Notes: a model not told the origin generated them from the letters alone. 60,805 bases of DNA from Candidatus Omnitrophota bacterium (GCA_030674475.1 JAUSCZ010000037.1:1-60805); one strand, 5' to 3'; counted from the first letter of the stretch, positions 23,287 to 27,788 are shown. A program made the numbers and translations.

Positions 23287-23370
23287 TTATTTAATTTTAA
23301 TGATTTTAATGATGTTGGTTTTTATATTCGTTCCGGCAAACCTGTCCAATCCTTGCTCGTCCTGGACCTA
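23287..23370 (-). pseudogene. Displaced copy of the 3' end of the radical SAM gene
   Basis: Encodes *VQDEQGLDRFAGTNIKTNII..., versus WVQDEQGLDRFAGVNIKTNL at 26832-26894. Confidence 0.85.
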
Positions 23371-23415
23371 GTTGTGTTTCCGGGCTTTTTCCCGACTCTG
23401 TCGGGAAAGTGGAAA

Positions 23416-23685
23416 CTATTTAAATAAATCAGAATGCGTGCCGGTCCTTACGAAAAATATATCCTCGGCTTCTATTTTGTAAATTAATAACCAATCCGGC
23501 TCTAGGTGACATTCTCTACATTCGTTAAAACTTCCTCCAAGTTTATGGTCTTTATTCTTAGCGGGGAGGCTCTTCTCTTCTATTAAAAGACATACTATTT
23601 CCTTTAACCTCTTTAAATATTTACCTCGCTTTTTGCCGCGCTTGACGTCTTTATTAAACTGTTTGGTATAAACAGGTGTAAGCAT
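23416..23685 (-). CDS. yafQ: YafQ-family mRNA interferase toxin
   Basis: YTKQFNKDVK, KDHKLGG, RECHLEPDWLLIY, RTGTHSDLF. Confidence 0.93.
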   Translation of the reverse strand: MLTPVYTKQFNKDVKRGKKRGKYLKRLKEIVCLLIEEKSLPAKNKDHKLGGSFNECRECHLEPDWLLIYKIEAEDIFFVRTGTHSDLFK

Positions 23686-23690
23686 TATAT

Positions 23691-23951
23691 TTAAATTTCC
23701 AGCCTTTCAAACATATCATTTGTATTTTTACACTTAGTTAGCCCGCGGCGTTTCCCAGCATCTTTTATAGCCTTCAAAGTCACCTCATTAGGAATTTTTA
23801 CCTCGAAAGGCAATCCTTCCCGTAAACTTACTTGCCTAAAAAACAAATTAATAGCCTCGCTTGAAGATAGTCCCAAAATATGGAAAATCTTTTCTACTTT
23901 ATTTTTTAAATGAGGCTCTGTCCTTGCTCTTATCATTGCTGTTTTAGCCAT
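23691..23951 (-). CDS. dinJ: RelB/DinJ-family antitoxin
   Basis: MAKTAMIRAR..P.LK, LGLSSSEAINLF, GLPFEVKIPN. Promoter TTGACT-17-TACAAT at 23998-24026. Confidence 0.92.
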   Translation of the reverse strand: MAKTAMIRARTEPHLKNKVEKIFHILGLSSSEAINLFFRQVSLREGLPFEVKIPNEVTLKAIKDAGKRRGLTKCKNTNDMFERLEI

Positions 23952-23970
23952 ATATTTGTCCTCCCGCTTG

Positions 23971-24153
23971 TTAACAGATTAATAATTCACTAAGTAAATT
24001 GTATCTCATTTGTGGAACAAAGTCAAGTTCTTTTTTAAGTTCTTTCCCGAGTTTGCAGCAATATGGCAACCATGAGTGATATGCAGTGGGGATTTTACAG
24101 GAAAAATCGCATAATGCCGCATTCCGTACTTTTTTCTTTTGGGACTTTTCCAT
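23971..24153 (-). CDS. Small Cys-containing ORF, possibly a truncated remnant
   Basis: AGAGGG RBS then MEKSQKKK...LCDFSC...PYCCKLGK. Its 3' end runs through the dinJ promoter. Confidence 0.35.
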   Translation of the reverse strand: MEKSQKKKVRNAALCDFSCKIPTAYHSWLPYCCKLGKELKKELDFVPQMRYNLLSELLIC

Positions 24154-24190
24154 AATTAATACCCTCTTATGCAACAACTAAAATCCGCGT

Positions 24191-24384
24191 ATAAAACAAA
24201 AAACCTCCGCCGGCAAAATTCTATCGGCGAAGGTTTTCATTATTTTTTATGTGCCAGATTTAGTCCTTCTAACATAGCACCGTATTCGTCATCTTTATTA
24301 AATCATTTTTTACCATAAAAATCAATCATAGGCAAGCAATTTCTTTATTGGCGGCATAAATGCCGCCGCTACAATAGCTCTGCC
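24191..24384 (-). ncRNA. Repeated REP-promoter-leader-terminator element, copy 3
   Basis: REP at 24351-24372, TTGCCT-17-TAAAAA promoter, hairpin and terminator homologous to copies 1 and 2. Confidence 0.6.
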
Positions 24385-24398
24385 ATTCGCTTGCATCC

Positions 24399-25077: not shown

Positions 25078-25115
25078 AATGTAAGAAATATACTATAATT
25101 CTTACATTTTGTCAA
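25078..25115 (-). promoter_or_regulatory. Sigma70 promoter with perfect 10-bp inverted-repeat operator
   Basis: TTGACA-17-TATATT. AATGTAAGAA-11 nt-TTCTTACATT. Confidence 0.75.
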
Positions 25116-25137
25116 TGGTAATCTTTATTTTTTATTA

Positions 25138-25159
25138 GCGGCATAAATGCCGCCGCTAC
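25138..25159 (-). repeat. GTAG-type REP
   Basis: GTAG-CG-GCGGCAT-TT-ATGCCGC, identical to 22522-22543 and 24351-24372. Confidence 0.8.
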
Positions 25160-25181
25160 CTGACGTATTATTGGGATTGGG

Positions 25182-26750
25182 TTACTCCTTGGCAATTTTC
25201 ATCTCTAATATCCTGTCCACCCGGAAAACCCGGTCTTCTTTACGCTGGAGGCAAAATGCCTCTAATCCCGTAAACTCCTTGTCAAGATAGGACATAGTTC
25301 CTACGCGCCGCGGCTTAATCTGACGGCGGGTTTTTTCATCGCTTGCCTTAAGATAGGTTATCTGAAGGCAGAGTTTATGGGTTATTGCCTCTTTAATCAT
25401 ACTTAGCTTATCCTCAAAAGGCATATCCCGTTCGGAAAGGGCATACTGGTGGCAGGTAACAAACCGAACTACGCGCCTGTCCATAAGGATGTCGGATTTT
25501 CTTAAGGGCCGGACAAGCGATATTCCTTCAAATGACCGGCAACGGCTTAATGCCACATAGGTCTGGCCGTGGGCAAAGGCGCCTCGGCCCATATCAATAA
25601 TCACCCGGTCAAAAGTCTTGCCCTGGCTTTTATGGATGGTAATCGCCCAGGCAAGTTTTAAGGGATACTGGGTAAAGGAACCTACGGTTTCGGCCTCAAT
25701 CATTGAGGTTTTTTCATCAAAGCTGAAATGAAATATCTCCCAGCTAAAGGGTAAGATTTCCTCAATATTCCCTTCAGCTAACCTGACAGAGACCGATTCC
25801 GCGTTTATCTCCCGGTTAAATTTTATCTGGGTAATCTCACCCAGAGAACCGTTAACCCACCTTCCCGTGGTATCATTGTTAAGCAGCATCACCTGCGCGC
25901 CAACAGCCAGGCGTAACGCGGAATCCGTGGGATAAGAATATTCCTTAAAGTCTCCCTCTATTTTCGCGCTATAGGTGTGTATCTTGGTTTTAAGCCTGTT
26001 GAGATGCTCCGCGTTAATCTCGGCGGCAGTTTTATTGGTAGTGCCCAGGTGTACTGTATAGCCGGAATTTACGCCTGCCGCGACATCCGCGCCTACCCGC
26101 CTGTTTAACAACGTTAAATCTTCATCAGTGACGGAATTGTTGCGAATGGCGTTAAGAAGTCTGATAAATTTTTCATCTTTCTGGCGGTAGATTTTTTCCA
26201 GCTCAATAAACTCCATAGGGAATTCCTGGAATACCGCCGCGTCAAAAAAATACTGGCTTTGGTAGTGGGAGCGAAAGATATCTTTTTCTCTTGAGGTTAC
26301 TACCGGAGGCAGTTGGTAGAGGTCGCCGATAAATATCATCTGGATGCCGCCAAAGGGCTGGCGGGAATCCCCGGCATTAAGCCTCAGGAATTTATCCACG
26401 CAATCAAGCAGATCCGCCCTGACCATTGATACCTCATCAATGATAACGGAGTCTATTTCCTTAAAGATGCGCCCCCTTTTGCCGCTAAGCTTCTTGATTT
26501 TTTGCAGGGTAATGTCCGGCTTAAAGCGGAAAAAGGAGTGTATAGTTTCCCCCTTTACGTTAAGGGCGGCCACTCCGGTAGGAGCCAGGACAACCACTTT
26601 CTTATCCGTATGGCTCCGGAAATAATCCAAGAGCGTGGATTTGCCGGTGCCGGCTTTTCCGGTAACAAAAACGTTCTTAGAGGTATGCTCCATTGCCTCC
26701 AGAGCTTTTTTAAACTCCGCGTTTATTTCAATATGGTTATTAGATGCCAT
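25182..26750 (-). CDS. Pif1-family SF1B helicase fused to a C-terminal WYL domain
   Basis: GKAGTGKS, LAPTGVAA, IIDEVSMV, GDLYQLPPV, QYPLKLAWAITIHKSQGKT, YVALSR. C-terminal I.Y......RRQIKP...EAFCLQRKEDRVFRVDRI (WYL pattern). Confidence 0.88.
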   Translation of the reverse strand: MASNNHIEINAEFKKALEAMEHTSKNVFVTGKAGTGKSTLLDYFRSHTDKKVVVLAPTGVAALNVKGETIHSFFRFKPDITLQKIKKLSGKRGRIFKEIDSVIIDEVSMVRADLLDCVDKFLRLNAGDSRQPFGGIQMIFIGDLYQLPPVVTSREKDIFRSHYQSQYFFDAAVFQEFPMEFIELEKIYRQKDEKFIRLLNAIRNNSVTDEDLTLLNRRVGADVAAGVNSGYTVHLGTTNKTAAEINAEHLNRLKTKIHTYSAKIEGDFKEYSYPTDSALRLAVGAQVMLLNNDTTGRWVNGSLGEITQIKFNREINAESVSVRLAEGNIEEILPFSWEIFHFSFDEKTSMIEAETVGSFTQYPLKLAWAITIHKSQGKTFDRVIIDMGRGAFAHGQTYVALSRCRSFEGISLVRPLRKSDILMDRRVVRFVTCHQYALSERDMPFEDKLSMIKEAITHKLCLQITYLKASDEKTRRQIKPRRVGTMSYLDKEFTGLEAFCLQRKEDRVFRVDRILEMKIAKE

Positions 26751-26772
26751 TTGCGTTTATAACCGGTTATTA

Positions 26773-26816
26773 GCGGCATAAATGCCTCTAATTGGTGGCA
26801 TAAATGCCACCGCTAC
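26773..26816 (-). repeat. Tandem GTAG-type REPs (one partial, one with compensatory changes)
   Basis: GTAG-CG-GTGGCAT-TT-ATGCCAC at 26795-26816. Partial copy at 26773-26786. Confidence 0.75.
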
Positions 26817-26831
26817 AATAGTTTCATAGAG

Positions 26832-27788
26832 TTAAAGATTAGTTTTAATGTTTACGCCCGCGAACCTATCTAATCCTTGCTCGTCCTGGACCCAGCCGTT
26901 ATGTAGGCCATAAGAATGCATAATATCCATAGCTTCCTGATATTCGTCTAAGGTAAGCCGCCGGGTTAATTCCGGGTAATCCTTGGCCTTGTGGCAGGGA
27001 AAGTATTGGCTCATTAGGCTGATATAGGTATCTGGGCCTAATTCCCGGGCAATAAAGGCCATAATTTCACCGGTTCCGGAAAGCTTATTGGGCAGAACCA
27101 GATGTCGGATTATCAGGCCTTTTTCGATGATTTCATCGGGATTAAACTGGGCAACTCCGACCTGGCGCCGCATTTCCTTAAGCGCTTGCTGGTTTATTTC
27201 CCAATAATCTTTGGCCTGGGAGAGCTTAAGGGCGGTTTGGTTGTCGGCATAGCGGGCATCCGGCAGGTAGATGTCAAAAATGCCCTCTAAGAGCCTCAAG
27301 GTTTCTACTGAATCATAGCCGCTGGAGTTATACACTAGGGGTATTTTTAGGCCTTTTTCCACGGCTAAGACCAGGGCCTTTAATATCTGGGGGATGTTAT
27401 GGGTAGGAGTAACAAAGTTGATGTTATGGCAGCCTTCTTGCTGTAATTCCAGCATAAAGGAGGCAAGTTCCTCCTCCCCGGCCTCCCTGCCTTTATCTGA
27501 TTGGCTGAATTCATAATTCTGGCAGTAGACGCACCTTAGGTTACAGTTAGTAAAAAAAATGGTTCCGGAGCCTTTGGTTCCGGAGATGGCTGGTTCCTCG
27601 CCGTGGTGGGCAAAATAGCTGTAAACTTTCGCCTTTTTTCCGGTTTTGCAGAAGCCGAGCCGGTTATTTAAACGGTCTGCCTTACAAAGCCTGGGGCAGA
27701 TGTCGCAGGAGCCTAAACGGCTATAAAGGCTTTCGGCCTTTTTCCGCAGTGAACCTTCTTGATGGGCCTTTAGATAACTGGGGGGCAT
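26832..27788 (-). CDS. Radical SAM protein, PflX-like
   Basis: CDICPRLC, HHGEEPAISG..GSGTIFF, CNLRCVYCQN, RHLVLP. Confidence 0.9.
   Translation of the reverse strand: MPPSYLKAHQEGSLRKKAESLYSRLGSCDICPRLCKADRLNNRLGFCKTGKKAKVYSYFAHHGEEPAISGTKGSGTIFFTNCNLRCVYCQNYEFSQSDKGREAGEEELASFMLELQQEGCHNINFVTPTHNIPQILKALVLAVEKGLKIPLVYNSSGYDSVETLRLLEGIFDIYLPDARYADNQTALKLSQAKDYWEINQQALKEMRRQVGVAQFNPDEIIEKGLIIRHLVLPNKLSGTGEIMAFIARELGPDTYISLMSQYFPCHKAKDYPELTRRLTLDEYQEAMDIMHSYGLHNGWVQDEQGLDRFAGVNIKTNL

Follow-up and report, generated by a model that had tools for sequence, protein, structure and literature searches.

An orphaned gene end behind a radical SAM gene of Candidatus Omnitrophota: a possible crossover scar in a hot spot of toxin-antitoxin cassettes

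Introduction

Phage 21 enters icd by the same kind of insertion as the prophage e14. For e14 of Escherichia coli, the portion of PMC6379469 that deals with it describes insertion inside the 3' end of icd, a replacement end supplied by the element and the old end left behind as a 163-bp pseudo-copy. Here we analyze a 60,805-nt stretch of DNA, hereafter the window, from a Candidatus Omnitrophota bacterium (GCA_030674475.1, JAUSCZ010000037.1:1-60805), in which a radical SAM gene is separated by about 3.5 kb of helicase and toxin-antitoxin genes from a second, orphaned copy of its own 3' end. As in icd, the gene end is repeated at both junctions with an identical core and the open reading frame (ORF) is whole; however, e14 is a prophage that encodes an integrase and is excised in one piece, whereas at this locus no integrase was found, the cassettes vary singly and the repeat is about 60 nt long.

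A second precedent is provided by the Rhs and type VI secretion system (T6SS) effector-immunity arrays, in which a constant 5' part receives a new 3' end together with cargo and the old end is orphaned downstream; the relevant sections of Kirchberger 2017 (PMC5361080, citing Jackson 2009) propose homology-anchored recombination and give no known integrase. The locus described here has the same constant 5' part, new end with cargo and orphaned old end, and a second case was found in another genome (G006). In contrast to those systems, where variable toxin tips are accompanied by immunity genes and strings of orphans, the displaced end is here a conserved, housekeeping-type one, with a single orphan per locus in nhmmer searches and a 21-nt block of identity at the junction. 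The cis-mobilisable elements of streptococci are likewise integrase-less islands flanked by direct repeats of a gene 3' end, and they have att sites in common with integrase-bearing elements of the same species. The likeness lies in the gene-end repeats around recombinase-free cargo, and the difference in that no integrase-bearing partner was found here. Sedentary chromosomal integrons also resemble the locus in their small, one-directional cassettes, which are in many cases toxin-antitoxin pairs equipped with promoters, and in the repeated hairpin between cassettes, but no integron integrase was found here and the repeat is a 26-nt repetitive extragenic palindrome (REP) with a GTAG head, which is not attC-sized.

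Gene-end displacement with a replacement end is a known kind of event. The novelty lies in which gene and which phylum are concerned, in the lack of an integrase, in the association with a Pif1-WYL helicase that has been exchanged and in the setting of REP-bounded cassettes. The Pif1-WYL architecture itself is already known, as the part of bioRxiv 10.1101/163188 that concerns it indicates. Nothing on this locus was found in the literature on toxin-antitoxin systems or genomic islands of Omnitrophota, supplements aside.

Results

The window is the whole of contig C41 in a genome of 42 contigs, 2.19 Mb and 92% completeness. Relatives of its radical SAM gene (Table 1) are named by JGI 'putative pyruvate formate lyase activating enzyme', and an orthologue is present in 41 of 41 related genomes, with downstream content that differs from genome to genome. 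A repeat search of the window recovered a 57-nt direct repeat of 79% identity at 23315-23371 and 26839-26895, one base away from the positions given by an earlier model reading of the sequence alone (the original prediction), which had described a duplicated gene end. The two copies, A at the working end of the gene and B 3.5 kb downstream, share an identical 21-mer, GGTCCAGGACGAGCAAGGATT (minus strand), which is met in the window only at these two places at up to 3 mismatches, against 0 matches in 100 shuffles, and in the 2.19-Mb genome at the same two places only when up to 4 mismatches are allowed. The protein ends in GWVQDEQGLDRFAGVNIKTNL before the stop codon of copy A; copy B reads VQDEQGLDRFAGTNIKTNIIKIIKIK between two stops, the first being a TAG that stands where a Trp codon was, and its ORF continues to a TAA at 23287-23289.

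A codon-by-codon alignment places the identity block at codons 300-305. Past the block, where 18 of 28 nt are alike, nine codons carry a synonymous third-position change, in line with the predicted 21-nt block followed by nine synonymous differences, and R308 and K315 are unchanged. Instead of the single amino acid change of that prediction, there are two, V312T (3 bases changed) and L318I (2 bases changed), and the stop codon has become ATT. The excess of synonymous over replacement codons (nine to two) implies that most of the divergence between A and B arose while both ends were under selection. In a chance control with all pairs of 77 distinct orthologous ends, keeping those at most 72% identical in the 28 nt after the block, the block was identical in 21 of 21 positions in only 1 of 1378 pairs. 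Taken together, a block of identity that is preceded by no clear homology and followed by synonymous change to saturation is the mark expected of a crossover, which very probably lay within the 21 nt. Homology of copy B upstream of the block was considered as well, either ungapped (5 of 9 bases) or as CACAAC with a 3-nt gap, and was not used (binomial p about 0.1).

JGI metagenome proteins were searched with residues 262-318 of the full radical SAM protein. A Thr at position 312 occurs in the full-length orthologues P0003, P0005, P0011 and P0035, and ends that are either Thr-type (...RFAGTNIKTNI-like) or run on beyond the usual stop in P0003, P0005, P0009, P0011, P0015 and P0045, the run-on ends being GTNIKTNILSTS, GTNIKANISPS and GTNIKTNIIGINYR. 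Since such ends exist in full-length genes, copy B is allele-like, and its appearance is that of a real, diverged allelic end and not of noise. In P0009, P0015 and P0045 the usual stop is lost and 3-6 codons are added, as though junctions often land exactly at the stop. The first 450 nt of the gene in the window are 95-100% identical to those of G001, a genome of the same genus, but in the last 250 nt the value drops to 73-87%; its identity with the gene of G006, from another genus, varies along the gene from 57% to 95%; the last 27 nt of copy A are identical to those of G002 (same genus as the window), and the middle of copy A resembles G006. Judged by these identities, the radical SAM gene is a recombination mosaic.

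The DNA between the copies had been predicted to have arrived as one unit, which comparison with relatives does not uphold. G001 and contig L032, 99.3% alike, carry the gene, a REP pair, Pif1-WYL and DinJ-YafQ without window positions 24046-25197 (the AbrB-VapC cassette); their DinJ-YafQ is 92-93% identical to that of the window, from which both diverge inside the hairpin behind yafQ (about 23393), 22 nt before copy B, and L032 continues past this hairpin with a terminator module and another cassette. In G002 the gene, a REP and Pif1-WYL are followed by a nucleotidyltransferase, a Cas3-HD fragment, a TacA-GNAT pair and an exonuclease, and afterwards by the VapBC that it has in common with the window. 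In G006, Pif1-WYL lies directly behind the gene and is followed by an AbiL pair, a phosphoesterase, a GIY-YIG gene and a ParE pair. Pif1-WYL is 92%, 90% and 88% identical to that of the window in G001, G006 and G002, respectively, directly behind the gene each time, whereas the flanking DUF4416 gene is 97%, 59% and 76% identical and the flanking PilZ gene 96%, 52% and 90%. Across genera Pif1-WYL stands at 90% and the neighboring genes at 52-83%, which argues that the helicase was exchanged between genera, each time behind the same gene. No Pif1 gene was found behind the radical SAM gene in G003, G004, G005 and G007; the Pif1 loci of G003, G004, G008, G011, G013 and G030 do not adjoin the gene, show no sign of the same design and were set aside.

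Contigs of two other groundwater studies (X3 and X4), mapped at 88% likeness and known from their mapped coordinates, join parts of the window that lie apart. The joints 25157 to 26832 and 23281 to 25132 give the order gene stop, 3 letters, REP, 36 letters and VapB-PIN (depth 143 and 58), and joints 25157 to 26832 and 25159 to 26832 place the REP at 25128-25159 directly behind the gene stop. The joint 23277 to 25182 connects the Pif1 stop, through 12 letters, to VapB-PIN (depth 15 and 25), and the joint 23277 to 26863 connects the gene to VapB-PIN through unread letters (depth 7). The VapB-PIN edge is at 23277 or 23281 in 5 of the 10 listed joints, 6-10 nt past the stop of copy B. These joints suggest that VapB-PIN directly behind the gene is a common state in related populations, between the two sides of which the 3.5 kb of the window sits. 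No exact empty site, with the gene reading into the B-type end (...KTNIIK), was recovered among the contigs of related populations, as known from mapped joints. A gap in X3/X4 contig cover at 23323-23463 proves nothing and was not used. In species representatives, 40 PIN loci lacked the radical SAM gene or a remnant of it next to them (best nhmmer E 0.083), and window DNA from 22560 to 23420 matched the 41 genomes through the 57-nt gene end only (3 of 41, including G000). The omission of AbrB-VapC in G001 and L032, the junction of Pif1 with VapB-PIN and the other cassettes behind Pif1 in G002 indicate that the cargo is not one autonomous element; it is remodelled cassette by cassette, with edges at stops and REPs.

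A second displaced end of the radical SAM gene was found in G006 (99.985% identical to contig L033). It measures 47 nt and reads LGRFAGVKIRANL, its stop falling where the gene normally ends. The remnant is 6.35 kb away from the gene, on its downstream side, and is immediately preceded by the ParE pair and followed by DUF520 and rpoN. A gene-end profile used with nhmmer matched window copy B (E 1e-10) and the G006 remnant (E 2.6e-5) and nothing else. A broader profile, run against the sequence that follows the gene end in 83 loci and the window (446 kb, with 65 stretches longer than 1 kb), again scored only in the window (E 7e-8) and the G006 organism (E 0.005), L099 being marginal (E 0.15). 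In G002, covered from the gene to rpoN, nhmmer found no displaced end. The G006 remnant is more decayed than copy B, and its first position lies about 13 nt deeper in the gene end. It has no long block in common with the functional copy of the same genome, and the cargo end next to one remnant is unrelated to that next to the other. In locus L023, which represents G006, the remnant occupies 9205-9251 and the 6.35-kb island 9242-15600, with Pif1-WYL, AbiLi/AbiLii, a PDC-S10 phosphoesterase, GIY-YIG and the ParE pair. Two other scans gave no usable result: a blastn-short self-search of 64 loci returned chance 12-13-mers only, missed G006 and was superseded by nhmmer, and a protein-motif scan found no second copy beyond the window and also missed G006, which makes it no valid negative.

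No recombinase was found by Pfam in any ORF between copies A and B, in agreement with the prediction that none is encoded in cis, and no integrase in the G006 island. The genome has two PF00589 matches, which are the XerD and XerC equivalogs, and one small resolvase (a 154-aa frame) on another contig; integron-integrase (intI) models gave only sub-cut-off matches, which fall within XerC and XerD. Behind the orthologues, no recombinase domain was present at E <=1e-5 in 123 frames, namely those of at least 205 aa among 183 frames of at least 180 aa within 5 kb; the remaining 60 fell below that length or belonged to L021, L023 or L032, and selected ORFs of L021 (7700-12400) and L023 (8435-13904) were scanned with Pfam. 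The 21-mer, which had been proposed for a search next to integrases, has 0 matches in the IMG/VR viral contigs and in 185,579 species genomes (GTDB representatives), and was not found in the gene ends of 61 of 80 metagenome loci nor in 7 relatives. The proposal that the gene is a dedicated attachment site is accordingly not borne out: the 21-mer occurs nowhere else among the sequences searched, the genome has only XerC, XerD and one small resolvase, the 123 frames hold no recombinase, and the two remnants start differently. A tRNA or known RNA as the true target was ruled out, with 0 ARAGORN genes in the window and 0 Rfam matches at E <=0.1 in 17000-29000.

Discussion

We hypothesize, with a probability of roughly 0.45 for the explanation as a whole, that the duplicated end is a crossover scar at a cassette hot spot, with host recombination as the agent. 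Incoming DNA would have borne its own diverged copy of the last 60 nt or so of the gene, followed by the cargo from Pif1-WYL up to DinJ-YafQ, and would have crossed over with the resident gene inside the 21-nt identity block. The resident gene body would then have been joined to the incoming end, copy A, whose post-block part (26832-26871) would have arrived with the cargo, and this would explain why the ORF keeps 318 codons. The resident end, copy B, would have kept its VapB-PIN neighbor and been shifted 3.5 kb downstream, and the cargo would later have been remodelled cassette by cassette. Copy B is most likely the resident former end and copy A the incoming one, as far as the sequence allows the direction to be read. 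The agent may have been host homologous recombination on a short diverged patch, and the substrate either a circular intermediate or a donor that already had this arrangement; a dedicated integrase is not favored. The likeness to e14 in icd that had been predicted holds for the topology, namely gene body with incoming end, cargo and old end, and not for a cargo that is no unit and has neither integrase nor recurring core. Host recombination is favored by the abundant homologous exchange at the locus, by the non-unit cargo and by the failure to find an integrase or recurring core. Several points weigh against it. A 21-nt stretch at the very margin of a 60-nt patch, with about 65% likeness past the block, is a substrate on which homologous recombination would be expected to act rarely. 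The homology of copy B begins abruptly at the block, with 5 of 9 bases matching upstream (chance about 0.1), which is what an element-borne attP would give. A second displaced end near the same place in another genus, with Pif1-WYL again next to the gene, suggests targeting, and an integrase could lie in the missing part of a genome that is 92% complete. Furthermore, the direction is unproven, the last 27 nt of copy A being those of G002 and neither end being clearly closer to G001, and the evidence for the empty site consists of contig joints, one of which spans unread letters.

Host recombination is placed only slightly ahead of a lost or trans-acting integrase. Site-specific integration, in which attP would be the 21-nt core plus the replacement end, the integrase since lost or supplied in trans, and the island later subject to gain and loss of cassettes, would account for a perfect core whose left side lacks homology and whose right side has diverged synonymously, a pattern like that of e14 in icd, as well as for the second displaced end of G006 and for a Pif1-WYL gene that stands where an integrase gene usually would be. 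We nevertheless consider it rather doubtful: neither the window island nor that of G006 encodes an integrase, the genome offers only XerC, XerD and the small resolvase, and the core is absent from viral contigs, species genomes and the metagenome gene ends examined, with 0 recombinase domains in the 123 frames. In addition, the G006 remnant starts about 13 nt further in, the element ends have no common sequence, and the Pif1 cassette moves without leaving a remnant, as the joint 23277 to 25182 with its 12 letters indicates. An unlikely variant is that the last 20 codons are the true target of integrase-less, Pif1-WYL-led islands that bring a recoded end and have struck at least two times in two genera, the agent being a so far unrecognised recombination activity, either the helicase with a partner or a REP/Y1-transposase system that also shuffles the REP-bounded cassettes in the manner of an integrase-less integron.

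Three further explanations were weighed against the crossover scar. In homology-facilitated illegitimate recombination, a model set out in the relevant part of PMC5361080, the import would be anchored in the gene body and its far end joined illegitimately just before the resident end, the 21 nt being due to chance or later conversion; homology on one side only, the mosaic state of the gene and integrase-free cassette arrays speak for it, but it does not predict the identity block (chance about 1 in 1378) and a single orphan is present instead of a string, which makes it improbable. Equally improbable is a foreign copy B that came with VapB-PIN from a donor having the cassette directly behind its gene and was spliced into the middle of the array, with the yafQ hairpin on one side and the terminator module on the other; the block would later have been homogenised with copy A. 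Although the window differs from L032 by exactly the segment from the hairpin (about 23393) to the module (22498), and the upstream edge of VapB-PIN is fixed in several contexts, this route needs an extra conversion event restricted to 21 nt, and the cassette edge at 23277-23281 is outside copy B in 5 of the 10 listed joints. Illegitimate joining with chance identity and a hitch-hiking foreign end with later conversion remain unlikely even when taken together. An artefact, through chimeric assembly or local tandem duplication, is the least credible of all; together with the lack of an empty-site strain, it had been named in the original prediction as what would undo it. The sequence is that of a contig from a metagenome-assembled genome (MAG), and the block has the length of a common smallest assembly k-mer; however, Logan contigs of the probable source run cover 22900-24465, 24437-25157 and 25130-27100 with 0 differences and an even depth (about 11-13) across both junctions of copy B, and a second run of the same study contains 23246-23429 with 1 difference. 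The agreement of independent contigs with the MAG indicates that the YafQ-B-VapB junctions are not an artefact of its assembler, and nine synonymous differences rule out a recent tandem duplication.

Displaced gene ends are dated scars that give the order in which cassettes entered a hot spot. In this case they suggest that uncultured groundwater Omnitrophota gather toxin-antitoxin and defence genes behind one conserved gene without a visible integrase. The defence genes are an AbiL pair and members of two PADLOC candidate families, and the position adjoining the gene is always taken by Pif1-WYL. The radical SAM gene may consequently serve as a fixed landmark for mining the variable defence content of the phylum. 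Should targeting prove true, it would point towards a so far unrecognised route by which DNA enters a gene and leaves it intact.

Other features of the island

The hot spot consists of the radical SAM gene, 7.9 kb of same-strand cassettes and, at its far edge, HTH and LAGLIDADG genes followed by rpoN (Table 1). The ORF6N protein matches the PADLOC candidate family PDC-S05 (E 6e-56), and the island therefore mixes toxin-antitoxin pairs with candidate defence genes.

Table 1. Positions of the gene-end copies, cassettes and neighboring features in the window
Feature	Position	Strand	Basis and remarks
Radical SAM gene, 318 codons	26832..27788	(-)	Pfam Radical_SAM + Fer4_12
Copy A, working gene end	26832..26895	(-)	Identity block 26872-26892; close of the 318-codon ORF
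Two REP-like hairpins (GTAGCGG head + stem-loop)	26763..26816	(-)	Between gene stop and Pif1; same pair after the stop in G001
Pif1-family helicase with C-terminal WYL, first cargo gene	25182..26750	(-)	Pfam PIF1, WYL
REP-like hairpin, upstream edge of AbrB-VapC cassette	25128..25159	(-)	Repeat scans
AbrB/MazE-type antitoxin + PIN (VapC) toxin	24399..25051	(-)	Pfam; promoter-like site 25115-25087
REP (24341-24372) + two-hairpin terminator module	24101..24383	(-)	Repeated cassette-junction module
Start of small ORF, no family	23971-24177	(-)	After terminator module
DinJ/RelB antitoxin + YafQ toxin, last cargo cassette	23416..23951	(-)	Pfam; promoter-like site 24026-23998
Hairpin behind yafQ	23385..23409	(-)	Read from sequence
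Copy B, orphaned gene end	23287..23371	(-)	Identity block 23348-23368; repeat search, codon alignment, nhmmer
VapB-PIN cassette	22653..23281 (genes 22653-23248)	(-)	Pfam; promoter-like site 23268-23240
ORF6N gene	21810-22328	same as cassettes	Pfam
HTH gene	21156-21434	same as cassettes	Pfam
AbrB-type pair	20068-20631	same as cassettes	Pfam
VapBC	19114-19764	same as cassettes	Pfam
Copies of two-hairpin module	19903-19996, 22363-22554, 24101-24400		Repeat scans
Far edge of hot spot	17856..18964	(+)	Pfam; conservation among relatives
Small HTH gene	18694-18900	(+)	Pfam
LAGLIDADG-domain gene	17856-18701	(+)	Pfam
rpoN	16139-17521	(-)	Pfam

The REP-like unit is 26 nt long, with GTAGCGG followed by a hairpin, and its strict pattern has 62 copies in the genome against 0 in the reversed genome; the stems covary (GCAT/ATGC, CGAT/ATCG and CCAT/ATGG). 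The island has 4 of the 62 strict copies, to which repeat and 12-mer scans add a degenerate fifth at 26763-26794, the sites being 22512-22543, 24341-24372, 25128-25159 and 26763-26816. The genome has 13 PF01797 (Y1-transposase) matches, and a small HUH/Y1-transposase-like ORF on contig C24 (about 1930-2465), whose match is weak and below the cut-off (E 0.0017, 19 bits), is flanked by two copies of the exact REP subtype of the island. A GTAG head is a criterion for REPs and REP-associated tyrosine transposases (RAYTs), and the genome has both a many-copy GTAG-headed palindrome and, with the weak C24 match, a Y1 (HUH) gene flanked by its own repeat. The two-hairpin module, a small stem-loop followed by a strong terminator, has three copies, which in this genome are confined to the island and always stand behind a toxin gene; two of them precede the start of a short lysine-rich ORF. 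It is also found in G002, G005 and L032, and its role may be that of a common 3' UTR, of a small RNA or of an anchor for recombination.

At the far edge, the LAGLIDADG gene is absent from G002, where 36 nt occupy its place (window 17653-18693), and copies 62-70% identical to it are paired with a small HTH gene in L035, L047, L079, L090 and L096. The presence of such copies between the radical SAM gene and rpoN in distant metagenome loci suggests an old resident and not a fresh homing insertion. Just past the small HTH gene, a 30-40-nt element at 18925-18964, GTAGTTAACATAAGATATATTAKAGGAAGT, is kept at 92-97% in G003, G005 and G006. Finally, a 64-nt promoter-like element on the minus strand at 20707-20770 (TTGAAT, 17 nt, TAAAAT) is 95-97% identical in G005, where it lies 125 nt behind the gene, and in G006, where it lies directly behind Pif1, and the gene that follows it differs in each genome. 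Within the spacer, at ...TTAGAATAAG, the similarity of G006 to this element breaks off; 4.7 kb further on, the displaced gene end of G006 finishes with an almost identical 10-mer.

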